From positions 3,626 to 67,625 of IMG/VR virus record IMGVR_UViG_3300049988_000034: a DNA stretch of 64,000 bases; one strand, given 5' to 3'. Numbering within the stretch: the stretch's first letter is position 1; each line of letters opens with the position of its first letter. The translations under genes were made by a program, and so were the position numbers. The notes below the pieces were generated by a model that saw only the letters and a program-made list of their open reading frames with translations, had not been told where the DNA came from and did not search any database. Source of the stretch: a virus. This document shows positions 33,507 to 63,504 of this stretch, one piece after another.

Positions 33507-34895
33507 ATGGCGGAAGGCGTGAACGTGGGCGGGGCGGCCAAAAAGGCTAACCTGTTGGCATCGGTGGGTTCGACGGGCCTTCGTGCGACCGGGGGGTTCG
33601 TCACGGAGGAGTTCCTGAAGGAACTGTCTGGCGTCCGTGGCGCGCGCACCTATCGCGAGATGGCCGACAACGACGGCACCGTGGGCGCCATCCTGTTCGC
33701 GTTCAACATGCTGATCCGGCAGGCCAAGTGGTCATTCCAGGCGGCCGGTGAGAGCCCCGAGGAGGAGGACGGCAAGGAATTTGCCGAGGGCGTGTTGCTG
33801 AAGGACATGGGCACCGCCCTGCGCAACGTGGTCGATGAAATTTGCACCATGTTCGTCCACGGCTACGCCCCGATGGAGGTAATCTGGAAGCGCCGCGCCG
33901 GCCCGAACGCCGACCCCCGCAAGACCAGCCGCTTCGACGATGGCATGATCGGCATTCAGTCGATCGTGCTGCGCTCGCAGCCAACGATCACCCGGTGGGA
34001 TTTGGACGAGGACGACGGCTCGATCCTGGGCGTGGACCAGCAGCCGCTGTCCGGCAACGCCGTCACGATCCCCGCGGAGCGCCTGTTGCTGTTCCGCACC
34101 ACGACGGTCCGGTCCAACCCGGAAGGCCGCTCGCTCCTGCGCAACGCCTATCGCTCGTGGTATTTCAAAAAGCGGATCGAGGAGGTGGAGGGCATCGGCG
34201 TCGAGCGCGAACTCGCCGGCCTGCCGATCGCATACATCCCGTCGGAGTTCATGTCGGCCGATGCCGACGCCGACCAAAAGGAGGTGTTCAAGGGCTGGCA
34301 GAAGCTGGTGATGAACATCCGGCGCGACAAGCAAGACGGCATCGTCATGCCATCCGACCGGGATGCAAACGGCAACCTCCTGTACGACTTCAAGCTGGTG
34401 AGTGCAGGCGGCGCGCGCAGCCTCGACACCACGAAGATCGTCGACCGCCACGATCGCGCCATCGCCACGTCCGTGCTCGCCGACTTCATCTTCCTGGGGC
34501 AGAATGCCGTGGGCAGCTTCGCGCTGTCGAGCGACAAGACCGCGCTGTTCGCGACCGCGCTGGGCGGGTTCCTGGACACGATCACCGACGTGTTCAACAC
34601 CGACCTGATGCCGCGGCTGTGGCGGTACAACAATCTCGATCCCGAGACGATGCCGACCCTTATTCACGGCGATGTCGAGACGCCGAACCTCACGGAATTG
34701 GGCGCGTACATCGGCGCGATGTCGGGCGCCGGTGCGCCACTGTTCCCGGATCGGGAACTGGAGAACCACCTTCGCGAGGTGGCTGGCCTGCCGCCCGCGC
34801 CGGAGGAGGGGGAAGACATGCGGACCCCCGCGCGTCCGGCCCCTGGGACCGCCGCAGGGGAGGACGAGGAGGAGCCGGAAGGGGCTGACGCCTAG
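33507..34895 (+). CDS. Portal protein (DUF935-like)
   Basis: NPEGRSLLRNAY..W.FK, IG.ER.LAG.P, GSFALS. Confidence 0.9.
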   Translation: MAEGVNVGGAAKKANLLASVGSTGLRATGGFVTEEFLKELSGVRGARTYREMADNDGTVGAILFAFNMLIRQAKWSFQAAGESPEEEDGKEFAEGVLLKDMGTALRNVVDEICTMFVHGYAPMEVIWKRRAGPNADPRKTSRFDDGMIGIQSIVLRSQPTITRWDLDEDDGSILGVDQQPLSGNAVTIPAERLLLFRTTTVRSNPEGRSLLRNAYRSWYFKKRIEEVEGIGVERELAGLPIAYIPSEFMSADADADQKEVFKGWQKLVMNIRRDKQDGIVMPSDRDANGNLLYDFKLVSAGGARSLDTTKIVDRHDRAIATSVLADFIFLGQNAVGSFALSSDKTALFATALGGFLDTITDVFNTDLMPRLWRYNNLDPETMPTLIHGDVETPNLTELGAYIGAMSGAGAPLFPDRELENHLREVAGLPPAPEEGEDMRTPARPAPGTAAGEDEEEPEGADA

Positions 34896-35790: not shown

Positions 35791-35845
35791 ATCACACGGG
35801 CTTTAGTCGCATGATGTGCCTAGTGTCCATAGTTGGGGCGAGATA

Positions 35846-36973
35846 ATGTGCTATTCACCGATCCCTAAAACCATCCGCAAGGCGCGGTCGACGCCGGCAG
35901 ACATCGAAGCGCTGGCCGACAAGCTGGTGCCCGGCCTGGCGAAGGCGATATTCGAAGCGCTCGACCAGATGGGCGACGACGTGGACCTGGACGACCTGGC
36001 CGCCGCGCTGGCGTCGGGCGACATCAACGCGGTGTTCTCGATCCTCGACGCCGTGGGCACCAAGGAACTAGGGATGGGGCTGGCCGGGCTCCAGGACGCG
36101 GCGTGGGCCGGCGGCGCGCTCGCCGCGGCAGGCATGACCCCGCGGGTGGGCGCCGTCGTGTTCGAGTTCGACAGGCTTAATCCGGCCCTCACGACGTGGC
36201 TGCGCGATTACCGGCTCAACCTAATCCGCGAGATCAACGAAACGACCAAGGAGGGCGTGCGGGGCGCCCTGTTGACCGGCATGGAGGCGGGAAAGAACCC
36301 CCGCGTGCAGGCGCGCGAGATCAAACAGGTGATCGGCCTCACGCGCCGGCAGTCGGCCGCCGTGGGCGCCTTCCGCAAGGAACTCGAAACCTTCCACCTG
36401 AAGCGATCGGCGAAGGGCTATGGCCTGGGGACGAAGATAGACCGCGCACCGGGCGGCGCGCAGGTGCTGAAGCCCGACGCCGATGGCAAGCCGAAGGACG
36501 GCATTCTGGAACGCCGCCTGCGCGACTTCCGGCACGACAAGGCGCTGTCGCGCGCGCTCGAAACCGGCAAGGCGCTGAAGCCCGAGCAGATCGACAAGAT
36601 GGTGGCCGCGTACCAGCGCAAATACCTGAAGTACCGCGCAGAGACGATCGCGCGCACGGAGGCGATGCGCGCGCTCAACATGGGCGTCGTGGATGCCTGG
36701 CACCAAGCGGTCGCGTCCGGCACGGTGCCCGAGGTGCAGGTGCGTCGTTTCTGGAAGGTGGGCAAGGACGAGCGCACCTGCGCGACCTGCAACGCCATCC
36801 CGAAGATGAACAAGCTGGGGGTGCCGCTGGCCAAGCCGTTTGCCACGCCCGTCGGCGCGCTGATGATGGGGCCGGTGCATCCCGATTGCCGATGCCACCA
36901 GTTCATCCGCATGATTGAACCGGAGGAGTTCGCGGCGTATGGGATTGGGCACAACGGCGGGCCTGTTTTGTAA
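35846..36973 (+). CDS. Head morphogenesis protein (MuF / SPP1 gp7-like)
   Basis: RAETIARTE, W....DERTC..C, HPDCRC. Confidence 0.9.
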   Translation: MCYSPIPKTIRKARSTPADIEALADKLVPGLAKAIFEALDQMGDDVDLDDLAAALASGDINAVFSILDAVGTKELGMGLAGLQDAAWAGGALAAAGMTPRVGAVVFEFDRLNPALTTWLRDYRLNLIREINETTKEGVRGALLTGMEAGKNPRVQAREIKQVIGLTRRQSAAVGAFRKELETFHLKRSAKGYGLGTKIDRAPGGAQVLKPDADGKPKDGILERRLRDFRHDKALSRALETGKALKPEQIDKMVAAYQRKYLKYRAETIARTEAMRALNMGVVDAWHQAVASGTVPEVQVRRFWKVGKDERTCATCNAIPKMNKLGVPLAKPFATPVGALMMGPVHPDCRCHQFIRMIEPEEFAAYGIGHNGGPVL

Positions 36974-37029
36974 AAAGTGCGTCACCCCTGCATTTTCCTG
37001 TTGAACTTATCGCAGGGTGAGTGCATTTA

Positions 37030-38650
37030 GTCATTGCCCGAGGACGCGGCGCACCACTAGGAACCACCCGCAAGGGCGAGGCTTAGTGGAGGTGAGGACT
37101 ATAGCAGTGGGGATCAAGAAACGCCTTGGGGCAATCGAACCCAAGGTTCCGCTACCTACGCAGCGAACTGGACGTTTGGGCAGGGCAGGTGCAGCCCCTA
37201 TCCAGTAGCACAAGTGGGGTGGTGCCAAGAGCCATAGGTGATGCAAAAGCCTTTGGTGCTGACGGGAAACCGGAGGCAAGCAACACCACCCTGCGCCGGT
37301 ATTCAAGAGATCGCGATGGTGCAGACGGTGTAGAGTGTTGGGGCTGGTACTTCGTACCTATCCGGCATCAATCCGACGACCTAGTGATGAACGGGGATTG
37401 GTTGGAACGGTTCGACCTTATGGGTTCATTTCCAGCCAATCCCTAAAGGTTTCCGAGTTTGTCGGCGGGATGTCACAAGCCGCGCGGGTTTTGTCAGTTC
37501 CGACCCGCCGACAATACCTATCCCCGGTCAAAGGCCGGGGAGTTCGGCCCGAGAAGCCCCCTTACGGGTCTGTTTCGAGGGTTCGTCCATGCCGACATAG
37601 GGGCATGGATACGGTTGCACGGTGGGGCCACGGTCTGCACCACGCAACCAAAGCATTCGCAAGCTGGCGCCCGCACGCGGTGGGAACCAGGCCCGTAATG
37701 TCTGCAATCCGGCAGGCAGGGCGAGGGGCTAAATATGACCGACCCGCCGACGTGGGGCCTTGTGCTGGCCATGCCGATCGGGAACCGGGAACAGGCCACG
37801 GATCGGCAGGTATAAAATCCTGTCCGGTAAGCGAGTGGCGGGAAACGAAGCGCTGCGGCCGGCTTGCCGGTGTCGCAACACACGCCCCGCTGGGACGGAG
37901 GATGAAAGAGCCTCCCGACCACTTATTCGGCTTCCGGCAAGACGGCGTATCGACGCTGATCGAGCCTACGCGGAGCATGCCCGCTTATGGAGGTGCGGCA
38001 CGGGGAGATGCGCAAGCACTCTATGATCCGTGCTCCAGGGATGGAACGACGGCTTCGGCCATCGGGAAGTCGACGCGAGGTGCCGGGTGGGGTTGAGGCC
38101 CCATGAAGCCCGGAGGACATTAGCGGCGAGGCGGGGAACCATACCCGCGGACCCCTCGACGGGTGGTATGTCGGGCGAGGGGCGCAGTTTTGGGCGGCAT
38201 ATCGCCCCGCGGGTCATATTTCCTTTGGGGATTATGAGCGAATGCCCACGGGGCGGTGCAAGAGGACTGTGGGCGAGGAGCCCATGTCGCCCGCCAAGAT
38301 CACCGCCGTAGCCTAACTCGATTGGTCTAAGGCGCCCGGACCCCGCAAGGGTCAGTACCACGGCATGAGAGGCCGTGAATACGATGACCGGGTAATGCGG
38401 GTTCGAGCCCCGCCGGAGGTGACAGAAGGCGCATTATATCCAGGGGGTGCGGGTAGCCTGAAGGTCCGGCGTGTAGTGGCGACGGGTAGCCTGATGGTGC
38501 TGCACTACCAGCCGAGGGCGGTGTCCCAATCCACCGCTTGAAGTGCTCCACCCCCGCGGTATGATGCGTTGCCCGGCGTAGGCGGCCCCTGATCCAATAG
38601 GTAGGGGCTTTGGACTACGGTTTCCAACGCTGCGCCGGGCGACGTTCGTA
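37030..38650 (+). ncRNA. Candidate giant structured non-coding RNA (or array of structured RNAs)
   Basis: No credible ORF over ~1.7 kb; many long stems with G-U pairs, GNRA and UUCG tetraloops; TTGAAC at 37001 upstream. Confidence 0.7.
38300..38422 (+). ncRNA. tRNA-like domain with a 48-nt insert replacing the anticodon loop
   Basis: Acceptor stem 38301-08/38414-21 (one mismatch), D-stem GCCT/AGGC, stem CCCGG/CCGGG, T-arm GCGGG-TTCGAGC-CCCGC; no encoded CCA. Confidence 0.7.
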
Positions 38651-38675
38651 AGGTTCAACAGGGGTGGAGTAAGTA

Positions 38676-39203
38676 GTGGCTGGTTCGGTCAACAAGGTTA
38701 TTATCGTCGGCAACCTGGGGCGCGACCCCGAAAGCAAGGCGTTTCAGAATGGCGGCAAGGTGGTCAACCTTCGCATCGCCACCAGCGAAAGCTGGAAAGA
38801 CAAGCACAGCGGCGAACGTAAAGAGAAGACGGAGTGGCATAGCGTCGCCATCTTCCACGAAGCGCTGGGCAACATCGCGGAGAAGTACCTTCGCAAGGGC
38901 TCCAAGGTCTATATCGAGGGCGCGCTTCAGACGCGTAAATGGCAGGATCAGACTGGCGCCGACAAGTACAGCACGGAGATCGTGCTTAACGGCTTCAACA
39001 GCGTGTTGACCATGCTCGACACCAAGCGCGACGACGATGGTGGCGGCTATGGCGGTGGGCGTGACAGCAACCGCGGCGACTTCGGTGGACGATCGAGCGG
39101 CGGCAGCGATCGGCAGCAGCAACGCGGCTCGCAGGGCGGGTTCGGCGGCGGCGGCTTCGGCGGTGGGTTCCCTGATGACCTGGACGACGACGTACCGTTC
39201 TAA
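38676..39203 (+). CDS. ssb: Single-stranded DNA-binding protein
   Basis: [39 protein letters not shown], acidic tail DDLDDDVPF. Confidence 0.97.
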
Positions 39204-39224
39204 TCATCACAGGAGAGATAAGCG

Positions 39225-39671
39225 ATGCCTATCGTTCATCAATGCCTCCTGCAACGCAAACACCTCCTCGCGAAGCCTGACACCCTGTTCGTGTACGGTG
39301 ACGTGCTGGAGGGCGAGGCGATCCTTGGCGCGCGCGAGTGCCGAGGAGAGCCGAACGCCGTTGCGATCCCGGCCATGCGCAATGACAAGCTGGAGGAGGG
39401 TTCGTATTTCAAGGACGCCGACCTGGAGGGGATCAAGCCCGCGATCCAGGAGGCATTCCGCCGGCTGTCCATGCACGCCATGGGCGGAGGCGAGGTGTGT
39501 TTCCCGAACAACGGGGTAGGGCACTCGATCGGTGGAGGGCTCCGACAGCGGGCACCGGCGATCGATGCCTATCTCACGAAGTGCTATCGCCACCTGATGT
39601 CGCTTGACATCCAGGCGATGAAAGAGCGCGGCGTCCTGAAGGATGATCCGACCGCGTTGCGGCGCTACTGA
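39225..39671 (+). CDS. Conserved phage hypothetical protein
   Basis: PDTLFVYGD ... RGEPNAVAIP motif; GGAG SD. Confidence 0.7.
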   Translation: MPIVHQCLLQRKHLLAKPDTLFVYGDVLEGEAILGARECRGEPNAVAIPAMRNDKLEEGSYFKDADLEGIKPAIQEAFRRLSMHAMGGGEVCFPNNGVGHSIGGGLRQRAPAIDAYLTKCYRHLMSLDIQAMKERGVLKDDPTALRRY

Positions 39672-39811
39672 TGGCCGAGTGTGACCACGAGTGGATCGAC
39701 GTGGAGAGCATGTTCAACAACGAGTATCGCACTGATGTGCGGTGCGCAAAGTGCCATGAAGCCGGAGAGAGAAACGAGGCCGATGGCGTCGTTTTCTGGC
39801 CTGCCACTTAG
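39671..39811 (+). CDS. Small Zn-finger-like protein
   Basis: CDHEW...CAKC; TGATG coupling. Confidence 0.5.
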   Translation: MAECDHEWIDVESMFNNEYRTDVRCAKCHEAGERNEADGVVFWPAT

Positions 39812-39821
39812 CCCTATTCGC

Positions 39822-39850
39822 TTGCCTAAAACCCGCAGAAAAGCTAGACT
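39822..39850 (+). promoter_or_regulatory. Sigma70-like promoter upstream of the polyvalent gene
   Basis: TTGCCT-17 nt-TAGACT. Confidence 0.5.
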
Positions 39851-40097
39851 TTCGGCTTAATCGACGGGTTCGGCGAGTGCGCGTCTGTATATTCCAGATG
39901 CAACAATCCGAACCAGCTTAGAAGCGGCCCGAAGTGCGGTCGCGGAGGTGGGCGACCAACACCTGTTCGCCATGGCGTCGAGTTCGGCGCATAGGGCGAG
40001 CAGGCGGCGGTAGGCCGCTAAGTCATCGATCCTTTCGGCGCCGTCCGTCACAGGGCCGCGTCGCATGGATCGTCGGGTGAAGCAACCGGGGGGTAGC

Positions 40098-43000
40098 ATG
40101 GGTATTATCGAGGCGAACATTGCGATCGTGAAGGCGAAGTTGGCCATCGCGAAAGAGCGCGAACCGCGGACCCTCTACATGCGGCGCGACCTGCACCCGG
40201 CGACGGCTGAAGCGGTGATCGAGCACTTCAAGGCGCAGGGCTTGCCGACCACGATGCCGGCCGACAGCCTGCATATCACGCAAATCTATTCGAAGGCGGC
40301 GGTGGACTGGTACACGGTCCCGTCGCCATGGACCGCGCCCCTCGTGATCCCCGAGGGTGGACCGCGCACGATCGAGCAGTTCGGCCATGGGGACGACGTG
40401 TGCATTGTGCAGTGCGTCCGGTGCCCGCCGATGGAGGAGCGCTATCACGAGTTGATCGCGTCGGGCTGCGCATCGAAGTACCCCGAACTCGCGGCGCACT
40501 TCACCCTGTCGTACAACGTGCCCGAGGGCTTCGACGTGTCGTCGCTCCAGCCATTCCAGGGGGAGATCGTCCTGGGGCCGGAGATATGGGAGGAGATCAA
40601 GGGCAGCGGGTGGACCCCGGCCGATGCGGTCGAGAAGGCCAAGGGCGCCAAGGGCAATCGCCAGTACCATCGCGAGCCATCGGGGACATCGAAGGGCGGG
40701 CAGTTCACGTCGAAGAACGGCGCGGATAGCTGGGGCGGATCGCACGGCGGTGGCTGGGGCAAGAAAGCGCCGGCACACACGATCGAGAAGCCGGGCAGCG
40801 CGCGCCACCCGCAGGACGACGACAAGGGCAACCCGGTGTTCGTGCATAAGCCGACCACGCCGATCGACCATGCCCGGTTCAAGGACAAGAACGCCATCGC
40901 CACCGTCGTGCCTGGGGATGCGAAGGCGCCCCCGACGATCGGCGGCATCCCGTTCACCTCGTGGAAGGGTGTTGATGACTGGACGAAGGTGCCTGGCACG
41001 AACGAGGCGCTGGAGAATGGCTTGCCCGACCTCGACGCGGGACACCTGCGCCCGGCGGCCGGCGTCATCATCCAGGAGAAGGATGGCCGGGTGTGGCTGA
41101 CGCGCCCGACCAACAGCTTCGGCGGGTACGAGCACACCTTCCCCAAGGGTGGGCAGGAGAAGGGGCTGACGCTCCAGCAAACGGCGGTCAAGGAGGCGTG
41201 GGAGGAGACGGGCCTTCAGGTGAAGATCACCGGCGTGTTCGGCGACTTCAAGCGCACGACCAGCGTGGGCCGGTACTATCTGGCAGAGCGCGTCGGCGGT
41301 GATCCGCGCGACATGGGATGGGAGAGCCAAGCGCTCCGCCTGTCGCCGGAGAAAGACCTGAAAAACCTGTTGAACACGAAGGCCGACCACGACATAGTGG
41401 ACGCCTGGGACGAAGAACAATCGATCGGCAAGGCCGTTCCTGTTCCGTTCCTTTCCGCTGAAGGGCTGGCGCATCTCGCCACCATCCTCGCGCCGCTCGA
41501 CAAGGCTAAGGCCGACCTCAACATCATTGGCAATGAAACGCTGGCCTTCGCGTCAGCGGACACACTCGCGCGCGTGGGCAGGCTCTACGACCTTGTGGAT
41601 AAGGCTAGAGGGGGGAAGGGCACCCAAGGGGCCGCATGGGCCAAGCAACCACGCTACGAGGCCGGTAGCAGCCTTGGGGGGCAGTGGAAGGCATACGACA
41701 GCAAGGGCGTGCTCCTGCCGCCTAAGATCGGCTCCGCGGCCAACCCTGCGTACGGGAAGAAAGCGGCGGCGTTGTACGGGCTGGCGTCGACAGACGGGCC
41801 GGGCATCGCGGCGGCTGCATTCCAGGCATCGGGCATCCCGGAGAAGGCAGCAGCGGTAAAGGCCAAGATCGCGTCGGGCGCTAAGGCGAACTCGAACGAC
41901 AAGTGGTGGATGCAGCTTCACCAGTATGGGAGCGAGTTGACCTCGACGCAGGCTGCGAAAACGATCGCGGATACGAAGGGGGGAGGGGCCGCAGTCTCGA
42001 AACTTTCCGACTATGAAAAAAAGGGGGCCAAGCCGGGCGGGTCCAATCCGGGCGCGCTCTACACCGACGGCAATGGCGCATCGGTGCTTATCAAGGGCTC
42101 GAACAACCCGACCAAGGACGGATCGCACGCGCACAACGAGGTGATGGCATCGAAGCTGTTGGCGGCGGCCGGCGTCGGCGTGCCCGACATGAAGGTGGTG
42201 GACCTACAGGGGCAGCATGGCGGCGGCATGGGCGTTGCCTCCACCATGTTGACGGGCGCGAGCGGGTATAGCCCGGCCGACAAGGCATCACTGAAGGCGG
42301 CGCAGCAGGACTTCGCCGTGCATGCGTGGCTGGCCAACTACGACGCCGTGGGCATGGGCAATGACAACCTGATGATGAAGGACGGCAAGGCGTTCAACAT
42401 CGATCCGGGCGGTGCCCTTATGTTCCGCGCGCAGGGCGCCCCGAAGTTCGCCGACGGCAAGCTGCCGCACACTGTGATCGAGTGGAAGTCGATGCGCGGG
42501 GCGGTGCCGGGCATCCCGAACAACGCCTATGCCCACGCCACCTATGGCAGCATGACCGCGGCCGACCTGAAGGCGAGCGCGCAGAAGCTGGCAGCGGTGA
42601 CGCCCGACCAGATCAAGGCGATCGTGGACGCCCATGCAGGGCCGATGGACAAGGCGATGTTGACCGAGGCGCTGGTAGCGCGCCGCGCGTTCATCCTGAA
42701 GGCGGCAGGGCTCGATACGGAGGCCGCGGCGCCCGTAGTGTCACAGCCGGCACCAATCCAAACGCCTAAGAGTACACAGAAAGGCCCCCTTAGTACCAGC
42801 GATCCGGTGAAAACGGCTCCGATCACGTCGGATGGGCCTGTTCCGCTGGGTAAGGATGCGTTCAACGAGGGGTACAAGAGCCCCGCGCAGTTCGCGACCT
42901 ATGCCATGGTGATCGACCAGGCGGCGAAGTCCGGCGACATCGGGTTGGTGAAGAAACTCGCGCAGGCGAACGCCGACCTGTCCGATACGCACTCGTCGCT

Positions 43001-45137
43001 CTACGGGTTCGGATCGGCGGGGCACACCAACTACGGGAAGCTGGCGGATCATGCCGAGGCGCATATCGCGTCGATGCAGATGGCGGCTGAAGCCAAAGCG
43101 ACCGTTCCGGGACAGGCGACGCCGGCAGCGCGCTCGACGGCGACCCTGCCCGCCCCTCCCGCGGAAAGCGCTTTGGGGGGCAAGGCCAGCTTCATCAATC
43201 TCGCAGCCGATGCCCATGCAGCTTTCAAGTCGGGTGACAGCAGCAAGATCACGGCAGCGATGCAGAATGTCGAGGATGCGACGTGGAAGGGCGATGCACC
43301 TGCCAAGGCGCTCAACGCCTACGTCGGATCGCTGGTAGCGGCGAAGTACCAGAAGCCGGACGGCGGCACCGCGCCCGTGGGATCGGTCAAGCCGCAGTTC
43401 GGCGTCGAGCACGGCACGCTGGCCTCGTCGGCGAACTTCTACAACGCCCTGGCGAGCAAGATGGAGGCGGCGTCGAAGGAGCCGCAGGGCTCGATCGCAG
43501 CGCTCCAGGCGGCAGCGCAGGGCAAGGGCGGCAAGGTCGTGTGGCCCACGAAGGAGGATGGCACCCCCAAGACAGCAGCGGCGGCCAAGATCGCGGCATA
43601 CCACAGCGCACTCCTCGCGCAGGCGCAGGCAGCGCAGGGGGCAGGGCAGCTTGCGGACCTGAAGGCGGCACCCACGGCGGTGAAGCCGACCACGCGCGCG
43701 GCCAAGGCGGCCATGGTGGCGGGCGTCGCATCGGAGCCGGTGCAGATTGCTATGCCGCAGAAGCCGATGAACATCGCCACCCCGGCCAACCCGAATAAGG
43801 GGCTGGTGGCCAAGGCCGACGCGATCGAGAAGGACGTTGCGGCGTTCAAGGCCGGCATCATCGACCAGGAAACGGCGCTGGCCTCGATCGGCGTCCACAC
43901 CTTCGGTACGAACTCGCAGAACGCCAAGGTGCTGAAGTACCAGACCGACGCCATCGCCTCGATCGTGAGTGCGAGCGGCGTGCAGACGGCGACCGCGGCG
44001 CATCCGGCCGTGATGCCGACCGCTGCACCCGCACCCAAGGCCAAGGCGAAGGACAAGACGCCGAAGTTCGACCCGGCCAAGGTGTCGGCGCCTCCGTCGT
44101 TCATCGCATGGGGTGAGACTGGCAAGCCGGGTCCGTCGGGCGTGGCCATGGTCAACGAGGTGAACCACGCGGCAGCGCAGGCCATCTTCGCGGCGGCCAA
44201 GACCGGCGATCCCAAGGCGGTCACGTCGCTCCAGGCGCCGCTGGTGGACAAGGCAACGGGCACCCTGACGGGCGTCACCAAGCCGGTGCTCGAACACCCC
44301 TCGCAGCATATCAAGGGGTACGCGACACAGACCCTCAACGAGATCGACGCACAGTTGAACCCGCCCAAGGTGTTCCGCTTCGGCGATGGGCACCCGCTGG
44401 CAGCGCTCGACAAGGCGTTCCCGGTGGCGTCGGTCAAGGAAGCGGCGGCCAAGATCGGGAAGTACGTGGACCTGGGCAAGGCGGGGATCGTGAACCCCGA
44501 CGCGGTCGGACTGCCGGCGCCCGCGACCTATGCCAACGGCAAGCTGACGACGCAGACCTATGCCAGTGCGGCGCAGGCGGCCATCGCCAAGATGCCGAAG
44601 ACGCAGCAGGCGGCGATCAAGTCCTACACCGGCGCCGGCTATGGGGCGATGAACAAGGGGATGTGGGAAGGCAACCCGACGGGCGCGGGCAAGGCGGCTG
44701 GCGAGGCCATCCAGACGCTCGGGCACGAGATCGCGCCGGGCACCATCCTGTCGCGCAAGGTGTCGCCGGACAGCGCGGCCATGAAGGCGCTGTTGGGATC
44801 GGTGGGCAAGGTGCTCCAGGAGCCGGCCATTCAGTCGACGGCGGTCGATCCGAACGTGTGGAGCGGCAATGTCCACCTGAAGATGGTGGTAGGCCCCGGT
44901 GTGAAGGGCTTGTACGTCGGTCCGGGCTCAATGCCGGGCGGCGGCGCGCTGTCCAATCACTCCGGGGAAAAGGAGTTGATATTGCCGCCAAATACCCGCA
45001 TGTTGGTACAGAAGGTCACAACCTCCCAATATGGGAAGGGTGATGCGGACGGTTTCGGGAAGTCCAGCACGCATATCATTGAGGTGCTGATCCTCCCGAA
45101 TGGTGCAGGCCATGACGGCAAAGGCAAGGTGAAGTAA
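40098..45137 (+). CDS. Polyvalent protein: 2H phosphoesterase (Acb1/gp57B-like), NUDIX, PI3K/HipA-like kinase, VIP2/Alt-like ADP-ribosyltransferase
   Basis: HIT and HFT motifs; PKGG..E.....TAVKEAWEETG; GGSNPG..K..NE..D..N..ID; SYTG..Y..MN, R, ST, ExE. Confidence 0.85.
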   Translation: MGIIEANIAIVKAKLAIAKEREPRTLYMRRDLHPATAEAVIEHFKAQGLPTTMPADSLHITQIYSKAAVDWYTVPSPWTAPLVIPEGGPRTIEQFGHGDDVCIVQCVRCPPMEERYHELIASGCASKYPELAAHFTLSYNVPEGFDVSSLQPFQGEIVLGPEIWEEIKGSGWTPADAVEKAKGAKGNRQYHREPSGTSKGGQFTSKNGADSWGGSHGGGWGKKAPAHTIEKPGSARHPQDDDKGNPVFVHKPTTPIDHARFKDKNAIATVVPGDAKAPPTIGGIPFTSWKGVDDWTKVPGTNEALENGLPDLDAGHLRPAAGVIIQEKDGRVWLTRPTNSFGGYEHTFPKGGQEKGLTLQQTAVKEAWEETGLQVKITGVFGDFKRTTSVGRYYLAERVGGDPRDMGWESQALRLSPEKDLKNLLNTKADHDIVDAWDEEQSIGKAVPVPFLSAEGLAHLATILAPLDKAKADLNIIGNETLAFASADTLARVGRLYDLVDKARGGKGTQGAAWAKQPRYEAGSSLGGQWKAYDSKGVLLPPKIGSAANPAYGKKAAALYGLASTDGPGIAAAAFQASGIPEKAAAVKAKIASGAKANSNDKWWMQLHQYGSELTSTQAAKTIADTKGGGAAVSKLSDYEKKGAKPGGSNPGALYTDGNGASVLIKGSNNPTKDGSHAHNEVMASKLLAAAGVGVPDMKVVDLQGQHGGGMGVASTMLTGASGYSPADKASLKAAQQDFAVHAWLANYDAVGMGNDNLMMKDGKAFNIDPGGALMFRAQGAPKFADGKLPHTVIEWKSMRGAVPGIPNNAYAHATYGSMTAADLKASAQKLAAVTPDQIKAIVDAHAGPMDKAMLTEALVARRAFILKAAGLDTEAAAPVVSQPAPIQTPKSTQKGPLSTSDPVKTAPITSDGPVPLGKDAFNEGYKSPAQFATYAMVIDQAAKSGDIGLVKKLAQANADLSDTHSSLYGFGSAGHTNYGKLADHAEAHIASMQMAAEAKATVPGQATPAARSTATLPAPPAESALGGKASFINLAADAHAAFKSGDSSKITAAMQNVEDATWKGDAPAKALNAYVGSLVAAKYQKPDGGTAPVGSVKPQFGVEHGTLASSANFYNALASKMEAASKEPQGSIAALQAAAQGKGGKVVWPTKEDGTPKTAAAAKIAAYHSALLAQAQAAQGAGQLADLKAAPTAVKPTTRAAKAAMVAGVASEPVQIAMPQKPMNIATPANPNKGLVAKADAIEKDVAAFKAGIIDQETALASIGVHTFGTNSQNAKVLKYQTDAIASIVSASGVQTATAAHPAVMPTAAPAPKAKAKDKTPKFDPAKVSAPPSFIAWGETGKPGPSGVAMVNEVNHAAAQAIFAAAKTGDPKAVTSLQAPLVDKATGTLTGVTKPVLEHPSQHIKGYATQTLNEIDAQLNPPKVFRFGDGHPLAALDKAFPVASVKEAAAKIGKYVDLGKAGIVNPDAVGLPAPATYANGKLTTQTYASAAQAAIAKMPKTQQAAIKSYTGAGYGAMNKGMWEGNPTGAGKAAGEAIQTLGHEIAPGTILSRKVSPDSAAMKALLGSVGKVLQEPAIQSTAVDPNVWSGNVHLKMVVGPGVKGLYVGPGSMPGGGALSNHSGEKELILPPNTRMLVQKVTTSQYGKGDADGFGKSSTHIIEVLILPNGAGHDGKGKVK

Positions 45138-45764
45138 ATGCCCAATCAACCCATACAGGACGGCAACTATCTCGGGGGACTGGCCGCCAAGGTGGGCGAG
45201 CACGAGGCGTATCTAGGCGACCCCGACACGGCAGACGGCATCGTGCGCGGGTTCATCGCGCAGGTGCTTGCCGCCCATGCGCGGGAGGATGACGCCGCGT
45301 TCGGCAAGACCCTCAATCGCGCCTGCATCGACACCGCCGACGTGTTCCTGGGCACGGTCACACAGGGCAGGCGGCCAACGGACCCGGCGATGGTCACGTT
45401 CCTTCCGGTCGCGGACTGGAACCGCGAGGGCGGCGGGCTCGGGCAGTGGGTGCGCCCGCGCTTCGCCGACCAGATCGACGGTATCGAGGCGATGACCGAT
45501 GCCGATATGCTGGCCAACGTGTTCGCCATCCTCGCGCTGGCGGTCACGGAGGTGATCGAGAAGGCGGCCGAGGACGATGACACGCAGGACGCGGTGCTGT
45601 CGCTCGACGCGATGGTCGATGACTGGCGCAACCTCGTGATGGGCATCCCGAACGAAGACGACACCACGGCATCAATGTTGCTGGTGGCAGAGCAGGCCCC
45701 GCCGACCGATTACGATGGAGGCGGTGATGCTGTCGATGACGTGGCCCCAACACCGGCGCCGTGA
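45138..45764 (+). CDS. Acidic hypothetical protein coupled to the polyvalent gene
   Basis: ATG directly after the TAA; Asp/Glu-rich. Confidence 0.7.
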   Translation: MPNQPIQDGNYLGGLAAKVGEHEAYLGDPDTADGIVRGFIAQVLAAHAREDDAAFGKTLNRACIDTADVFLGTVTQGRRPTDPAMVTFLPVADWNREGGGLGQWVRPRFADQIDGIEAMTDADMLANVFAILALAVTEVIEKAAEDDDTQDAVLSLDAMVDDWRNLVMGIPNEDDTTASMLLVAEQAPPTDYDGGGDAVDDVAPTPAP

Positions 45765-46020
45765 ATGCCAGTTCCGGGGGAGGATCGTGCATTTCTCCCC
45801 CATGGAGCACGTCGTGCTGACGAGCCTCCTGTTGCGGCGCGGCGAGGTGATCGGATACGGCGAGATGATCGAGTTGATGTATCCCAACCCTGACGAGGAG
45901 CCCGATTGGGCGCGCAGTTCATTGGGGGCTGTCATCTGCCGGATACGCGCCAAGCTACCGGGCGCCATCCATACGATAAGGGCATCCGGGTTCTATATCC
46001 CTGTTGCAATAGTCACGTAG
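45727..46020 (+). CDS. Stand-alone OmpR/PhoB-type winged-helix DNA-binding domain (CtrA-like)
   Basis: HFSPME..VL..L.LRRGEV.....IE.MY...DEEP.....ICRIRAKL...I.T.R..GF. Confidence 0.7.
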   Translation: MLSMTWPQHRRRECQFRGRIVHFSPMEHVVLTSLLLRRGEVIGYGEMIELMYPNPDEEPDWARSSLGAVICRIRAKLPGAIHTIRASGFYIPVAIVT

Positions 46021-46069
46021 CGCGAGTATCGCCGGGCTTCCACTGCCAAGCATAGGAGCCCGGCACCCC

Positions 46070-47368
46070 ATGACAACGATTACCCCACGAGGTGCGTTGC
46101 ACCTCGCGCGCGACCAGTTCGAACTGTACGCCACCGAACACGAGGCCAAGGCAAACCCCTCGTCGCCGAAGTTCACTGGCCACGTTCTCGCCAGCAGCGC
46201 CATGGCCAAGGCTGCGACCAACCGGCAGATGGTGTCGGCTATGGATGAAGCCCTGAAGGGGCTCGATGCCGAAAACCCGTCGTTCGGGCACGGCTTCGCC
46301 GACAGCTTCCGCACCATAGGCGAGGTGCGCACCGCAGCGTTCAGCCTGTCGGGCATGCAGGCGGATGGCACGCCCGCTGCACACCTCGCCACGCGCCTTC
46401 ACGACAGCATCTGCGCCATGCTCCGCGGCGACCGCTACATTACCGCGCAGCAGGTGCGCGACGCGCTCCAGGGGGCCGGCGACCTGGCGGAAACGGCATT
46501 CGGCCCTGCCGATGCGCCCGGCCTGCCCTTGGGCCTGCGCTATCATCCTCGATACGCCATCCGGTTCACGCAGCGCGCGGCGTCGGGGGAGATCGAAGAC
46601 CTGGGCGTGGTGTACGCGCACACGAGCCCGGCCACGCACGCGCTCCTGCGCATGCTTCCGAAGGGCGAGGTGGAGAGCGTCGAGAAGTGGGACGGCAAGG
46701 CGTGGATCGAACTGTTCGGTGTCCATGACGATGCCGTGCGCGGCGTTCCAGCGGTGGGAGAGGGTCCGTATCGCCAAGGCTCCATCTCGATCGGCTACGA
46801 TCACGGGCTCGACGAGGCGCTTGCCGACGTTGCCGAGTTCCACAAGGCGCTGGCACCCGACCTGATCGCGTCGCACCCGCGGATGCTCACCTTCGACGAG
46901 GCGACCCGGCGCGCGGAGTGGATGGATAGCGAGGTGCGCGAACTCCTGATCGACACGCCAAGCGATGCCGAGGTGTCGATGCGACACGCGATCGGGAACC
47001 ATATCGTCGACATCGACACCATGGCGCAGCAGATCGATGCGGCCATGGACGTGATCTACTTCGCCCTGGGTATCCCGATGGAGATGGGGCTGAATGCCGC
47101 TCCATTCTGGCGGCTCGCGCACGGCGCCAACATGGCCAAGCTGCACACCAAGGCCGACGGCACGAAGTACGCTGTCCGGCGCGAGGGCGACAACAAGGTG
47201 GTGAAGCCCGAGGGCTGGACCGACCCGCACGCCGCGATCGTCGAGGAGATCAAGCGGCAGGTGATGGCCGCGCCCATGGCGATCGACGAGGAGCACTACG
47301 CGCTGCGCTACGCCATCCGCCGCCTGGGGCCGCCGGAGGGCTATGTCGACGCCGAGGGGGAGGGCTGA
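46070..47368 (+). CDS. Multi-domain protein with a C-terminal MazG/PRA-PH-like NTP pyrophosphohydrolase
   Basis: V.EFH, E..E, DAAMDVIYFA.G, H.ANMAK, KVVKPEGW. Confidence 0.75.
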   Translation: MTTITPRGALHLARDQFELYATEHEAKANPSSPKFTGHVLASSAMAKAATNRQMVSAMDEALKGLDAENPSFGHGFADSFRTIGEVRTAAFSLSGMQADGTPAAHLATRLHDSICAMLRGDRYITAQQVRDALQGAGDLAETAFGPADAPGLPLGLRYHPRYAIRFTQRAASGEIEDLGVVYAHTSPATHALLRMLPKGEVESVEKWDGKAWIELFGVHDDAVRGVPAVGEGPYRQGSISIGYDHGLDEALADVAEFHKALAPDLIASHPRMLTFDEATRRAEWMDSEVRELLIDTPSDAEVSMRHAIGNHIVDIDTMAQQIDAAMDVIYFALGIPMEMGLNAAPFWRLAHGANMAKLHTKADGTKYAVRREGDNKVVKPEGWTDPHAAIVEEIKRQVMAAPMAIDEEHYALRYAIRRLGPPEGYVDAEGEG

Positions 47369-47595
47369 TGGCAGAGCCCTATTACAACCCGCCCTTGACC
47401 GGGCAGAATGGATTGCTTGGCGGCGTGACCCTGCGCGACGAGTTCGCAGGGCGCGTCGTAGCCGGCATGATGACCCGCATGGAAGACGAGGTGATCCAGG
47501 ACATCGCCAACGGCACTCGCGCAGGTGGGCCTATCGCACGGGTGGCCTACACGATCGCCGACGCCATGCTGCGCGAACGGGCGGTGCAGCGGTGA
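47368..47595 (+). CDS. Conserved small phage protein
   Basis: TLRDEFA ... AYTIADAML.ER motif. Confidence 0.7.
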   Translation: MAEPYYNPPLTGQNGLLGGVTLRDEFAGRVVAGMMTRMEDEVIQDIANGTRAGGPIARVAYTIADAMLRERAVQR

Positions 47596-51133: not shown

Positions 51134-51230
51134 ATACCGAGGTGCCCGGCTGTGACATTGCGGCAACACCCCCCGTCTGTTAGGTTCCGCCGCGATGGGC
51201 GCGGGGGCGCCCGACAGGTGGGGGCACCAA

Positions 51231-54200: not shown

Positions 54201-54968
54201 GGCGACCTCAACCGCATCGGCATCATGTCCGGCCCGCTTCGCGCGCCCGTCGCGCCTACCCGGCTCACCCCGGACATCGGCGCATTGGTCGAGGAGCGTT
54301 ACGAACTCCGCAACGCGAGCGCGCGGCCCGCGGCCATCATCGTCGCCGGCTTCGGCACCCCAACGGGCAGCGGGACTATCAGCTTCAGTGCGCAGGGCAT
54401 GCAGTCGCGTGTCTATGGCGGGGCGACCGCGGACAGTGAGATCAACCTGATCTACGACGCCGGGATCGTGCCTTCGGACTTCAGTGTCGTGGACATTTAT
54501 TTCGAGGGCCTGAAGGAGGAGAACGGGAACGCCGCGCGCAAGCTGTTCGCCGGCTTCGCGACGCAAAAGAGCGTTCCACTCGCCTCGCAGACCGATGTAA
54601 TCTGCGTGTCCAACGTCGGCGCGGCCACGACCACCCTTCAGACCGGCACGTCGTCGGCCGCAACCGGCTACTCCCATGTGTTCCAGGGGGGCGTCGACAA
54701 GGCCAAGGCGTCGGTGGTTTACCCGGGCTTCGGCGTTGGCGCAGGGCTTGCGAACTTCACGCGATCGTTCGGTGTTCGCCTCTACCCCAAGTTGAACCGC
54801 ATCATGTGGCTCGACGAGGCTGGTGTTGAGATGGAGGAGTTCGATGCGCCCGTGGGTTGGGATTGGACCAAGCGCCTCTATCCGTTCATCAACTACATCA
54901 CGACCAGCACTGGAACCGTGAATAGTTACAGCCGAATGGGGGCGATCACCGTTCGCCGACTTCCCTAG
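51231..54968 (+). CDS. Large virion-type protein: Ig-like repeats, SGNH/GDSL esterase, glycoside-hydrolase-like C-terminal region
   Basis: GDSL (GVGDSLTFG), G.ND (LGFND) and DGTHP SGNH blocks; Thr/Gly/Ser-rich. Confidence 0.75.
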   Translation: MGTQKQITRQRRPLIINQTLVKPSAVGFGGGASLTASKGEFSTNVAAGATVATINDPFSGLGLGATSYSTFGNTPAQLALSTSSAAIVAGLSASVDKAVYEIGVLATSGDGKRRVGETFALTAKNPDVVAPVLNLALSPANPTIAANATAGSLVSVISNVPDGVTPTITPNDGRLKVNGSSLAGWTVVVGNSAMSAGNINFSVSATGANGASGVVTVGAVTFSLRTMAGGGFLPDGVSTVTAGVTRAVGRAQIPVFATTTDMKIAFPTFYMQDSAGEVVLTPQAGTTFAAQLEDSNGSVFGAITFDGGQSTTSTFPASGVFWSDVILPSVLGRTTFAAGTTTLFVKMEWTFPASGTNRIFISDGSGGSTGTTGEGCAYGGNTTMGVYGGAQAGGGTSQPTRIFRPWLVVGTHAGVAVAGVGDSLTFGQGDAKAGSIGSDGAGGGAFARAAYAAAVPYTKIGKPADRIQYWAGNGGANSANRIEAMRYHTHAFMMLGFNDIAGGSNSAAAVLTNLRDVWARMKAVNPNLKIHEGFITLRTSSPSDQWASAAGQTPQGGYETGGTRTVFNNSLAAEVAAGTIAGTFDYAPSCYDPAFPDKWLTNGTANYPTTDGTHPRPTFYSFWATYLRPILAALTATAPAPTETYSATLVNDTFITKPATMTSAGKGPYWPCLVDYRNFAAFPADWATYFSDDHGSGTEGIWLWVGRGSDATTAQWLSYDDALLAGWFDSIASKPTANPIIGSGQPQTNPAGFTEIETPDVNIYNGNVILTCQTNNATGYRYNQATIRTVSTDGLNFVLPASRSTILLNNPDFGAVGDGHTGYLRSGPNPYPDLINPATGAPWVWVYYSLAAGTDKSGSMQWASDDPIAGTVTRLTPLRATAGIVTDDPTVLNGKRIGNFPPVAGMRKISNGVYSAFVGASSPSSGSVQGSSIIAEAFMDSKGRLHNQGKVRPILGVGDANVRPIGAAVGTIVLDTVNNKWVATYHWRGSGDLNRIGIMSGPLRAPVAPTRLTPDIGALVEERYELRNASARPAAIIVAGFGTPTGSGTISFSAQGMQSRVYGGATADSEINLIYDAGIVPSDFSVVDIYFEGLKEENGNAARKLFAGFATQKSVPLASQTDVICVSNVGAATTTLQTGTSSAATGYSHVFQGGVDKAKASVVYPGFGVGAGLANFTRSFGVRLYPKLNRIMWLDEAGVEMEEFDAPVGWDWTKRLYPFINYITTSTGTVNSYSRMGAITVRRLP

Positions 54969-62514: not shown

Positions 62515-63504
62515 ATGCAGCCGACGCAGGGCGACGTTCATGTCAACACGCCGCTAACCAATCTTTCGATCGCGTTTCTTCAGAACGCAAACAACTTCAT
62601 CGCGTCGCGGGTTTTCCCGAACGTCCCGGTGCAGAAGCGGTCGGATCGTTACTTCACCTATGACCGCGGCCAGTTCAACCGCGACGAGATGCAGCTTCGC
62701 GCGGCGGGCGCGGAGAGCGCTGGCGGTGGCTATGACATCGACAGCACGCCGACGTACTACTGCCAGAAGTACGCGCTCCACAAGGACATCGACGACGACA
62801 CCCGCGCGAATGCGGATGCCGCGTTGAACCTCGATCGCGAGGCAATGGCCTGGCTGTCGCACAAGGCGCTTATCAAGCGCGAGAAGGCGTGGGTGGGTTC
62901 GTATTTCAACGCAGGTGCATGGTCCTTCGGCCGTGCGGGCGTCGCGAGCAACCCTGCCGTCGGCACTTCGGTGCTGAAGTGGTCCGATCCGGCTTCGACG
63001 CCGATCGAGGACGTGCGCAACGCGAAGCGCATCGTCCTGGAGAGCACGGGATACGAGCCGAACAAGCTGACGCTTGGCAAGGCCGTGTACGACATCCTCC
63101 TGGATCACCCGGACATCATCGACCGCCTGAAGTATGGCCAGACGGCCGGATCGCCCGCAATGGCGAACCGCGAACGCCTGGCGCAGCTTTTCGAGGTCGA
63201 CGAAATTCTGGTTTCGAGCGCCATCGAGAACACCTCGCAGGAGGGCCTGGCCAACGTCCATTCGTTCATCATGGGTAAGGGCGCGCTCCTCACCTATTCG
63301 CCGGCCGCTGCCGGCCTGATGACGCCTTCGGCGGGCTACACGTTCTCGTGGACCGGCCGCTACGGCAACGGTGCCGAGGGCAACCGCGTCAAGTCGTACC
63401 GGATGGAGAACCTCGACAGCGACCGCGTCGAGATCGAAATCTGCTTCGACATGAAGAAGGTCGCAGCCGACCTTGGTTTCTTCTTCGACGCCATCGTCGC
63501 CTAA
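62515..63504 (+). CDS. Major capsid protein
   Basis: 329 aa; LTNLSIA, FP.VPV.K, W.D..S.PI.D, PN.L.LG, HP.I; follows scaffold and decoration. Confidence 0.9.
   Translation: MQPTQGDVHVNTPLTNLSIAFLQNANNFIASRVFPNVPVQKRSDRYFTYDRGQFNRDEMQLRAAGAESAGGGYDIDSTPTYYCQKYALHKDIDDDTRANADAALNLDREAMAWLSHKALIKREKAWVGSYFNAGAWSFGRAGVASNPAVGTSVLKWSDPASTPIEDVRNAKRIVLESTGYEPNKLTLGKAVYDILLDHPDIIDRLKYGQTAGSPAMANRERLAQLFEVDEILVSSAIENTSQEGLANVHSFIMGKGALLTYSPAAAGLMTPSAGYTFSWTGRYGNGAEGNRVKSYRMENLDSDRVEIEICFDMKKVAADLGFFFDAIVA

Follow-up and report, generated by a model that had tools for sequence, protein, structure and literature searches.

A single phage polypeptide carrying Acb1-type 2H phosphoesterase, NUDIX, kinase-like and ADP-ribosyltransferase domains, encoded behind MuF in the head-gene region

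The protein encoded at positions 40098..45137 (+ strand) of the window, i.e. the whole 64,000-nt stretch of phage DNA analysed, includes in this order an Acb1-type 2H phosphoesterase, a NUDIX, a kinase-like and an ADP-ribosyltransferase (ART) domain, and the presence of all four was confirmed. As judged by the conserved catalytic residues, each of the four domains is predicted to be catalytically intact. The association of four enzyme domains in one phage polypeptide is that which defines a polyvalent protein (Iyer et al. 2017), and the product is a rich example of this known strategy, with enzymes that are predicted ones. It is fairly probable that the protein is packed in the capsid and injected, and that its four enzymes act on the next host. 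Polyvalent effectors packaged in virions, with 2H, ART and kinase domains among them, are a general concept dating from 2017 (PMC5512222). Passages of PMC5512222 and of a 2022 NAD-ADPr survey (PMC9503650) likewise treat giant multi-enzyme phage polypeptides that are linked to MuF and portal genes, with packaging and injection predicted for them, and name 2H, ART, kinase and Nudix among the cargo types.

The gene consists of one uninterrupted ORF, 40065..45137 (+), which encodes 1690 aa from the ATG at 40065 or 1679 aa from position 40098, corresponding to Met12, and the single protein of ~1,680 aa proposed in the original prediction is hence an intact reading frame. A run of G residues is located 5-10 nt upstream of 40098, and the same start is used for an entry of the public protein collection (P0002, 1679 aa). 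The GC3 of the gene is 0.85, like that of other genes of the same genome, which belongs to a 67.6-kb tailed phage. A megablast search of the region 38000-47500 against the phage collection returned no match, and relatives were obtained instead by tblastn; Rfam gave no match in the whole window at gathering thresholds. Every motif reported in the original prediction was found in the translation at the nucleotide position given for it, and the families and folds recovered, at levels far above chance, do match 2H/Acb1, NUDIX, kinase-like and R-S-E ART.

The Acb1-type 2H phosphoesterase domain (aa 35-179; 40167..40601, +) was identified by Pfam family PF23474 (E 2.7e-23, 82.8 bits against a cut-off of 27) and by matches to PDB sequences. 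The two HxT motifs that had suggested an Acb1-like 2H enzyme are H70-I-T72 (40272-40280, +) and H145-F-T147 (40497-40505, +). T4 Acb1 (gp57B; PDB 7t26/7t27) belongs to the same Pfam family, and both motifs and their flanking residues align with 7t26; the HxT motifs also align with those of the portal domain 8hds. However, Acb1, reportedly the subject of a 2022 study by Hobbs et al., is a small stand-alone protein, whereas the domain described here heads a 1680-aa protein at its N-terminus and resembles portal-fused domains much more closely. Its closest solved match is 8hds, the C-terminal domain of the Pam3 portal (E 3.6e-26), and the characterised Acb1 7t26 is far weaker (E 2.6e-5). The nearest relatives found by tblastn and in the PDB are located at the C-terminus of portal or head proteins from Pam3, Rhizobium, Sinorhizobium and Synechococcus phages.

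These relationships bear on the substrate of the domain. It is possible, if doubtful, that the 2H domain has no anti-CBASS role and is instead a phosphodiesterase or RNase acting on RNA ends, 2',3'-cyclic phosphates or 2'-5' oligonucleotides in host or phage RNA. In section 20 of PMC5512222, an RNase role and the degradation of nucleotide signals are put forward as equal possibilities for 2H domains fused to MuF or portal proteins. The best PHROG for the domain, PHROG 755, is labelled ‘RNA ligase’, and the ranking of the portal appendage 8hds ahead of Acb1 points in the same direction. The score obtained with the Pfam Acb1 model and the alignment of the HxT motifs and surrounding residues with 7t26 argue against an RNA substrate, and an RNA ligase partner is missing from those parts of the genome that were annotated.

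The NUDIX module (aa 248-448; 40806..41408, +), delimited using Pfam, PDB matches and conservation, includes a conserved N-terminal extension. PF00293 matches aa 328-439 (E 2.4e-14, 53.9 bits against a cut-off of 21.1), and the Ap4A hydrolase 3i7u is a match among PDB sequences (E 2.1e-9). The canonical Nudix box has the consensus GX5EX7REUXEEXGU. A box was found where one had been predicted, G362..L384 (41148-41216, +, from the translation and the family alignment), but it is non-canonical, as it keeps the core residues E377, E380, E381 and G383 while position 7 is L, not E, and position 15 is K, not R. The K at position 15 is found in 59 of the 60 rows displayed, out of 115 aligned, and the variant is therefore family-wide.

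The third domain (aa 643-886; 41991..42722, +) is an atypical kinase-like domain of the HipA/CtkA/PI4K-II type, assigned from an AF2 model (pLDDT 84.6, pTM 0.84) that has a bilobal kinase fold. The best fold match of the model is Helicobacter pylori CtkA (Z 16.3, rmsd 3.4 over 210 aa), followed by PI4KII (~13) and by CotH, MavQ and HipA/HipT at Z 11-13, with 11-12 for the HipA/HipT toxins; Foldseek gave a TM of 0.56. The block G658..G783 (42036-42413, +, from the translation), which had been read as kinase-like from its motifs, is borne out by the CtkA match and by its catalytic K, E, D, N and D, since residues G659, G663, K677, E692, D760, N768 and D780 are invariant in all 11 aligned sequences. 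In the model, the Gly-rich loop, the beta3 Lys, the alphaC Glu, the catalytic Asp...Asn and the Mg-binding Asp occur in the right order and on the expected secondary-structure elements. The same succession, from the Gly loop through Lys, Glu and the catalytic Asp/Asn to the Mg-binding Asp, is shared with CtkA, the HipA/HipT toxins and type II PI4-kinases, though identity to these is only 10-17% and the domain here is part of a phage polyvalent protein. Given this type, proteins and small molecules are both conceivable as substrates.

At the sequence level the kinase-like domain had no match in the PDB and none in Pfam over aa 640-890 at E<=1 (e.g. to PF00454 or the HipA families). None of its 30 nearest ESM Atlas clusters had a common Pfam family, and clusters of HipA_2 and PI3_PI4_kinase surfaced only at a score of 0.91. 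The domain is represented by 3414 clusters at 50% identity. Among proteins of <929 aa it gave five matches, all without a name, and it was also found in a BFVD protein named portal protein. No relevant publication on a CtkA/PI4K-type kinase-like domain in phage was found; the kinase described in passages of PMC5512222 is a truncated Ser/Thr/Tyr kinase from phages of Verrucomicrobia and Bacteroidetes, and differs from the HipA/CtkA/PI4KII-like domain seen here.

The region that follows (aa 890-1334; 42732..44066, +) is rich in Ala, Pro and Lys. Its composition agrees with the long linkers originally described, but part of it may consist of weakly repeated helical units and not of plain linker, as a helical unit of the pre-ART region had three weak in-register matches here (hmmsearch, i-E 0.043, 0.26 and 1). 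The repeats are graded weak because a BLASTP comparison of aa 441-1500 with itself gave no off-diagonal match and the profile matches are sub-threshold. A search of the ESM Atlas with aa 900-1340 gave no usable match. Next, a conserved pre-ART alpha/beta subdomain (aa 1335-1483; 44067..44513, +), defined by conservation and AF2, is confidently folded in the AF2 model and 50-58% identical in homologues.

The C-terminal R-S-ExE ADP-ribosyltransferase domain (aa 1484-1679; 44514..45101, +) is C3/VIP2/SpvB-like, as established from profile, fold and conserved residues. The R, ST and ExE elements that had been predicted are R1564, S1591-T1592 and E1635-K-E1637 (GEKE from nt 44964); all 18 sequences aligned share R1564, E1635 and E1637, and at least 90% have S1591. 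With the single sequence, PF03496 scored 22.7 bits against a cut-off of 23.4, i.e. 0.7 bit short. A profile of 18 family members searched against the PDB matched Lmo0066 (E 2.2e-14) and also Vis, SpvB, VIP2 and CDTa, and Foldseek with the model of the domain gave C3, SpvB, CDTa and Lmo0066 at TM (target) 0.58-0.69. T4 Alt is a virion-packaged R-S-E ADP-ribosyltransferase. Like T4 Alt, the domain is a phage R-S-ExE ART, with a match to PHROG 802 ‘Alt-like’ (E 6.6e-8), and delivery with the DNA is likewise proposed for it. Unlike T4 Alt, it is fused to three other enzymes, and its best solved matches are the toxins C3, SpvB, Vis, VIP2, CDTa and Lmo0066.

As judged by sequence comparison, the NUDIX-kinase-ART core defines a large family, as yet without a name, of giant proteins from phages and prophages, in which the N-terminal module varies. 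Among 51 large homologues, a WGR domain was present in 13, MuF (PF04233) in five, where it is fused to the kinase domain, and Acb1 in two. The Acb1 head is a rare add-on, with one other case among 50 large homologues and one among the eight syntenic loci described below. A word-based search for large proteins with the same 2H subtype recovered 1 of 467 candidates, the query protein itself, the search being of limited sensitivity and missing divergent cases such as P0014. The latter protein, encoded by a Thalassobaculaceae prophage (locus L021), has the full Acb1-NUDIX-kinase-ART order. The four-enzyme combination had not been recognised as a characterised one in the original prediction. No description of the NUDIX-kinase-ART core was found in the passages of PMC5512222 and PMC9503650 that bear on it, although the supplementary architecture lists of PMC5512222 may hold it; the combination is not unique, since its order recurs in the prophage.

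The core exists both fused and split into a kinase-ART gene, a small gene and a Nudix gene. In Yersinia phage fHe-Yen8-01, gp129 includes the kinase and ART (55% identity over aa 1324-1679) and gp131 is a stand-alone Nudix protein (51% identity to the NUDIX module). Taking fHe-Yen8-01 gp129-gp131 together with gp117-gp119 of Pseudomonas phage Dolphis, identity is 51-55% for kinase-ART and 46-51% for Nudix, but in these phages three genes encode a giant kinase-ART protein, a partner of 159-167 aa and the Nudix protein, and the Acb1 domain is absent. As split and fused forms both occur, the three core enzymes appear to be functionally linked, and their recurrent linkage suggests a shared chemistry on host targets. 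The trio is not obligatory, because in many family members the Nudix or the ART was not recognisable in a single-sequence search. The protein could provide a handle on this very large family, for which there is no curated model, as in each of the four domains the catalytic residues are evident targets for mutation and simple substrates are available for assays.

The genetic context of the gene was examined in the window. Genes for TerL, a Mu-like portal (33507..34895, +; PF06074, E 1.2e-27) and the MuF head-morphogenesis protein (35816..36973, +; PF04233, and PHROG 3517 with E 8e-64) are all found 5' of it on the same strand; downstream, the head module ends with the major head protein gene (62515..63504, +; PHROG 1005, E 1.4e-87). 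The 3.1 kb between MuF and the polyvalent protein gene includes genes for an SSB and a DUF7831 protein as well as a 1.7-kb ORF-poor stretch, and ~17 kb of mixed genes (MazG-like, HNH, GDSL, thymidylate synthase) separates the polyvalent protein gene from the capsid gene. The timing of expression is therefore not readable from position alone. A promoter and terminator scan of 36900-46200 gave no signal above shuffled expectation and delimited no transcription unit. For the ORF-poor stretch, no nucleotide similarity was found among 83 related loci, and Rfam gave no match over 36900-38700 at E<=1. A 208-aa ORF (45138-45764), the start codon of which abuts the stop codon of the polyvalent protein gene, had no Pfam or PHROG family; a role as partner or immunity protein was considered for it but is unsupported, as it is dissimilar to the small partners in fHe-Yen8-01, Dolphis and locus L004.

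Eight related phage or prophage loci share the MuF of the studied phage, and the portal was also detected in five of them. A homologue of the polyvalent protein gene is located downstream of MuF in all eight, starting ~4 to 250 nt past the MuF ORF in five and 1.1-1.9 kb past it in the remaining three, and it is upstream of the capsid gene in every related locus where the capsid gene is in range. The slot portal, MuF, polyvalent protein gene, major capsid gene is thus conserved, and the link to MuF noted for such proteins in the original prediction is seen at 3.1 kb here and with MuF directly upstream in the five loci. Furthermore, GenBank annotates fHe-Yen8-01 gp129 and gp131 as ‘(phage) particle associated protein’; no publication on fHe-Yen8-01 was found behind this annotation. 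Given the head-gene synteny and the particle-associated homologues, packaging and injection of the protein are likely.

T4 Acb1 is a soluble, non-virion protein, and the protein studied here could in the same way be made in the infected cell as a cytoplasmic anti-defence or takeover enzyme that is not packaged, like T4 Acb1, ModA and ModB, though we regard this as unlikely. It would be consistent with the finding, using Pfam and PHROG, of no MuF, portal or other capsid-anchoring domain in the polypeptide, and with the mixed neighbourhood of the gene, which has the SSB and other genes on its MuF side and nucleotide-metabolism genes (MazG-like, thymidylate synthase) after it. The position behind MuF in each of the eight loci and the annotation of the fHe-Yen8-01 homologues speak against it, as do the kinase and 2H domains that are elsewhere fused to MuF or portal proteins. 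In addition, great size and an abundance of linkers, both seen in the protein, are typical of polyvalent cargo (PMC5512222).

If the protein is indeed capsid cargo, it would be made late alongside the head proteins, loaded into the capsid and delivered to the next host along with the ejected DNA, where it would act whole or cleaved between domains. The Acb1-type 2H domain, from its family membership, may destroy cyclic oligonucleotide signals, e.g. those of CBASS, before effectors are triggered. The variant Nudix domain would hydrolyse an NDP-X compound, for which ADP-ribose-derived signals, NAD caps and protein-bound ADP-ribose are candidates. The HipA/CtkA/PI4KII-like kinase would phosphorylate a host target, and the C3/VIP2-type arginine ADP-ribosyltransferase would use NAD+ to modify host proteins in the manner of T4 Alt. 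Anti-CBASS activity would then arrive with the DNA, ahead of any phage gene expression, which would change the view of timing in the cyclic-nucleotide arms race.

The composition of the family raises a further question, namely whether the enzymes work separately. We consider it rather unlikely that NUDIX, kinase and ART act stepwise on a common target, as one modification pathway, with the Acb1 head as a separate add-on. For example, the ART would ADP-ribosylate an arginine, which the Nudix would trim to a phosphoribose that host ADP-ribosylhydrolases cannot remove, and the kinase would act on the target or the ribose, either to prime it or to add a further modification. Such a scheme is compatible with delivery as capsid cargo. 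Two precedents favour a pathway of this kind, namely the ability of Nudix enzymes to turn protein ADP-ribose into phosphoribose in vitro and the coupling of an ART with a phosphodiesterase in Legionella SidE. A further argument is that the trio is retained, as fusions or adjacent genes, throughout a very large family whose N-terminal module varies. However, this evidence comes from context, not chemistry, the Nudix or ART is not recognisable in many members, and the domain order and long linkers speak against a fixed assembly. Less probable still is that NUDIX-kinase-ART, a conserved trio present in thousands of proteins encoded in phage head slots, operates as a single machine, with the Acb1 head bolted on, that writes a compound modification which host erasers cannot remove. 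Carried by a host protein or nucleic acid, the mark could be, e.g., phosphoribosyl- or phospho-ADP-ribosyl-arginine, and one injected molecule would both silence cyclic-nucleotide alarms and rewrite the host. HopAG1, a type III effector of Pseudomonas syringae that also joins an ART to a NUDIX domain (as described in a passage of PMC9963460), adds to the case for a stepwise pathway and is perhaps an echo of such a machine. It is likened here by description only, as an injected ART and NUDIX effector, and differs in its reversed order, with the ART at the N-terminus and the NUDIX at the C-terminus, and in its delivery by type III secretion (same passage of PMC9963460).

The window covers bases 3626-67625 of one 67,625-bp contig, which is a tailed-phage genome encoding a tape measure protein, a gpJ-like tail tip protein, a DnaB-like helicase, a large terminase, a Mu-like portal protein, MuF and a major head protein (62515-63504); the initial 3.6 kb of this contig hold genes for adaptor, neck and minor tail proteins. 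The polyvalent gene is a single unbroken ORF of 1690 aa (40065..45137, plus strand), with a GC3 of 0.85 like that of the other genes of the genome. The original prediction placed the start at 40098, which corresponds to Met12 of this ORF and has a G-run just 5' of it, and an identical 1679-aa entry in the public protein collection (P0002) begins at the same residue. The predicted ORF at 40098-45137 is intact, with no interruption, and every sequence motif listed for it was found at its assigned position. The closest syntenic relatives come from genomes of Hyphomicrobiales, Thalassobaculaceae and Roseomonas; the host is probably an alphaproteobacterium.

The polyvalent protein, with its Acb1 head, is a rare form within a large and uncurated NUDIX-kinase-ART family found in a phage head slot. 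A full-length word-indexed search recovered 51 proteins of 929-2958 aa, the polyvalent protein itself included. As judged by precomputed Pfam assignments, NUDIX is present in 34 of the 51, PF03496 (ART) in 28, an N-terminal WGR domain in 13 and MuF in five, and Acb1 in two, namely the polyvalent protein itself and P0014 from a Thalassobaculaceae prophage. BLAST mapping defined a collinear core of a NUDIX module (aa ~190-450), the kinase (~650-890) and an ART module (~1335-1679), with N-termini and middle regions that differ among homologues. In Yersinia phage fHe-Yen8-01, Pseudomonas phage Dolphis and one IMG/VR contig, the system is split into a giant protein ending in kinase and ART, followed by a 159-169 aa protein and then a 272-286 aa Nudix protein. 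Hence, NUDIX, kinase and ART are tied together, being fused in some phages and adjacent in others.

Among 185,579 species genomes scanned by pattern, 135 loci encoding the kinase domain were identified, distributed among Alpha-, Beta- and Gammaproteobacteria, Actinomycetota, Chloroflexota and others. The kinase ORFs of 83 loci were checked for co-domains by single-sequence phmmer (E<=1e-3), and the resulting counts therefore represent a lower bound. Both NUDIX and ART were found in the kinase ORF at at least 6 of the 83 loci, one of which, L021 (on the same contig as P0014), also includes Acb1; NUDIX only was found at eight and ART only at seven, and neither was detectable at 62. All four domains of the proposed four-enzyme combination were confirmed, but the architecture is not unique, as it recurs in P0014/L021.

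The Acb1-type 2H phosphoesterase domain (aa 35-179) matches Pfam PF23474 at 82.8 bits against a cut-off of 27 (E 2.7e-23). Both 2H catalytic motifs expected for such a domain, H70-I-T72 and H145-F-T147, are present and line up with the equivalent motifs in Acb1 structures (7t26, E 2.6e-5; 9q2g). The match to the portal C-terminal domain of cyanophage Pam3 (8hds, E 3.6e-26) is far stronger than that to 7t26. A tblastn search of 50,697 phage records with the polyvalent protein returned 53 records in total, and in those with a match to aa 34-211 alone, from Rhizobium, Sinorhizobium, Synechococcus and Pseudanabaena phages, the matched genes carry a portal or head protein annotation. Together with 8hds, these annotations indicate recurrent tethering of this 2H subtype to head proteins. 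Section 20 of Iyer et al. (2017; PMC5512222) noted 2H domains fused to MuF and to portal proteins and proposed a role for the fused domains either as RNase or in the degradation of defence nucleotides.

The NUDIX module (aa 248-448; Pfam match aa 328-439, E 2.4e-14) has Ap4A hydrolase 3i7u as its closest solved structure (E 2.1e-9). The Nudix box lies where it was predicted, at G362..L384, and retains E377, E380, E381 and G383, though positions 7 and 15 are L and K, respectively. In the 60 displayed of 115 aligned family segments, position 15 is K in 59 rows and position 7 is mostly L, and the box is therefore a conserved variant rather than the product of decay.

No sequence match over aa 643-886, the kinase-like domain, was found in Pfam, NCBIfam or PDB, and the assignment comes from the predicted fold and invariant residues. 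A confident AF2 model computed from an alignment of 11 sequences (pLDDT 84.6, pTM 0.84) gave Helicobacter pylori CtkA as the best structural match (Foldseek E 1e-5, TM 0.56; Z 16.3, rmsd 3.4 over 210 residues by VIA), followed by type II PI4-kinases (Z ~13) and CotH, MavQ and HipA/HipT (Z 11-12). G659, G663, K677, E692, D760, N768 and D780 are invariant in all 11 sequences and map in the model to the glycine loop, beta3, alphaC, the catalytic loop and the DFG equivalent. The predicted kinase-like block is thus upheld, and the domain is read as an active atypical kinase that would act on either a protein or a small molecule. The nearest ESM Atlas clusters have no Pfam family, HipA_2 and PI3_PI4_kinase (score 0.91) being the closest with a name. 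In BFVD the same fold turns up in phage proteins, with the names portal protein, ADP-ribosyltransferase and Nudix hydrolase among them. By exhaustive HMMER search, there are 3414 clusters (50% identity) at E<=1e-3 and 185 at E<=1e-30, nearly all of them, among the matches listed, proteins of 1000-3000 aa. The literature searched held nothing relevant on this kinase type in phages.

The C-terminal domain (aa 1484-1679) is an R-S-ExE ADP-ribosyltransferase of the arginine type and follows a conserved alpha/beta unit at aa 1335-1483. The single sequence fell 0.7 bit under the PF03496 cut-off and matched PHROG 'Alt-like' at E 6.6e-8. An alignment of 18 sequences shows no variation at R1564, E1635 and E1637 and has S1591 in at least 90%, as anticipated from the R, ST and ExE residues recognised initially. 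The profile of these sequences matched solved Lmo0066 (E 2.2e-14), Vis, SpvB and VsdC (1e-8 to 1e-10), and further VIP2, CDTa and Tre1. The AF2 model (pLDDT 88.8) matches the folds of C3, SpvB, CDTa, VahC and Lmo0066 with target-normalised TM of 0.58-0.69 over ~200-220 columns.

Between the domains, a Gly-Gly-Gln-Phe/Trp linker motif occurs once each in aa 185-245 and aa 520-550, and is found also at the module borders of aligned homologues. In the extended form (H)PR/x...G-G/K-Q-F/W, it spans aa 201-214 and 527-541, recurs at module borders of many family members and could be a processing or docking site. The segment at aa 890-1334 is high in Ala, Pro and Lys. The pre-ART unit profile gave sub-threshold in-register matches at 947-971, 1127-1188 and 1256-1300 (i-E 0.043, 0.26 and 1, respectively); degenerate helical-unit repeats in this segment are possible but not established.

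The predicted MuF linkage extends beyond the window. MuF of the phage is common to eight related loci (E 1e-20 to 1e-116), as are portal and capsid genes where in range, and the order (portal)-MuF-polyvalent gene-capsid holds in 8/8 for genes in range, with a gap between MuF and the polyvalent ORF of ~4 to 250 nt in five and 1.1-1.9 kb in three. The window phage keeps this order, with extra DNA inserted into its head module: MuF is followed by 1.7 kb poor in ORFs and then by genes for SSB and a DUF7831 protein, and ~17 kb of mixed genes separate the polyvalent and capsid genes. In fHe-Yen8-01, gp129 (kinase and ART; 55% identity over aa 1324-1679) and gp131 (Nudix; 51% identity) are particle-associated according to the GenBank annotation, for which the literature search found no publication. 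Fusions of the kinase to MuF (5/51 homologues) and to portal (one BFVD portal protein), and of 2H to portal (Pam3 and the portal/head-annotated phage genes), also point toward virion cargo. Against this stand the absence of an anchoring domain, the lack of a defined promoter for the gene and the mixed gene neighbourhood. On balance, the evidence for virion cargo, though indirect, is consistent, and it is fairly likely that the polyvalent protein would be packaged and injected.

Phage polyvalent proteins are a published class, predicted to travel in the head and to enter the host by injection, and the cargo domains described for them in the text of PMC5512222 and PMC9503650 include ART, kinase, 2H and Nudix. 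However, the kinase described in PMC5512222 is a truncated Ser/Thr/Tyr kinase, different in type from that of the window protein, and the text examined of neither paper mentions a NUDIX-kinase-ART core. The plant-pathogen type III effector HopAG1, as described in the text of PMC9963460, likewise joins ART to a NUDIX domain. The original prediction of an enzyme toolkit holds at every point testable in silico, with injection and the activities themselves as predictions. Its two main draws are the prospect of a pre-delivered anti-CBASS activity and an unexplained, strongly conserved enzyme trio.

Other features of the window were noted as well. The 1.7 kb between MuF and the SSB gene (36974-38675; GC 0.62) has no ORF with coding-type GC3. 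Rfam gave no match to it, whether at gathering thresholds or at E<=1, and 83 related loci showed no nucleotide similarity to it. After the SSB gene, directly upstream of the polyvalent gene, the 148-aa product of 39225-39671 (plus strand) belongs to DUF7831 (E 9.3e-23), a family of unknown function. Downstream, the ATG of an acidic 208-aa ORF (45138-45764, plus strand) abuts the polyvalent stop codon (TAAATG). This ORF has no Pfam or PHROG family and shows no similarity to the small partners in the split systems of fHe-Yen8-01, Dolphis and locus L004; as a minus-strand ORF (45167-45667) overlaps it, its coding status is not certain. Two genes downstream of the polyvalent gene, 46070-47368 (plus strand) encodes a protein of 432 aa that ends in a nucleotide pyrophosphohydrolase domain of the MazG/PRA-PH type (Pfam E 2e-5; PHROG 671 E 1.2e-14), a predicted further nucleotide-directed enzyme in the block. 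Between the polyvalent and capsid genes, a GDSL/SGNH lipase-acylhydrolase domain (Pfam E 9e-9) marks a 1257-aa protein (51195-54968, plus strand) as a possible esterase, either virion-associated or directed at the envelope. Following the gpJ-like tail tip gene, a 758-aa ORF (10216-12492, plus strand) with no Pfam family lies in a low-GC patch (0.56 versus ~0.65); its product is likely a receptor-binding or spike protein gained by horizontal transfer.
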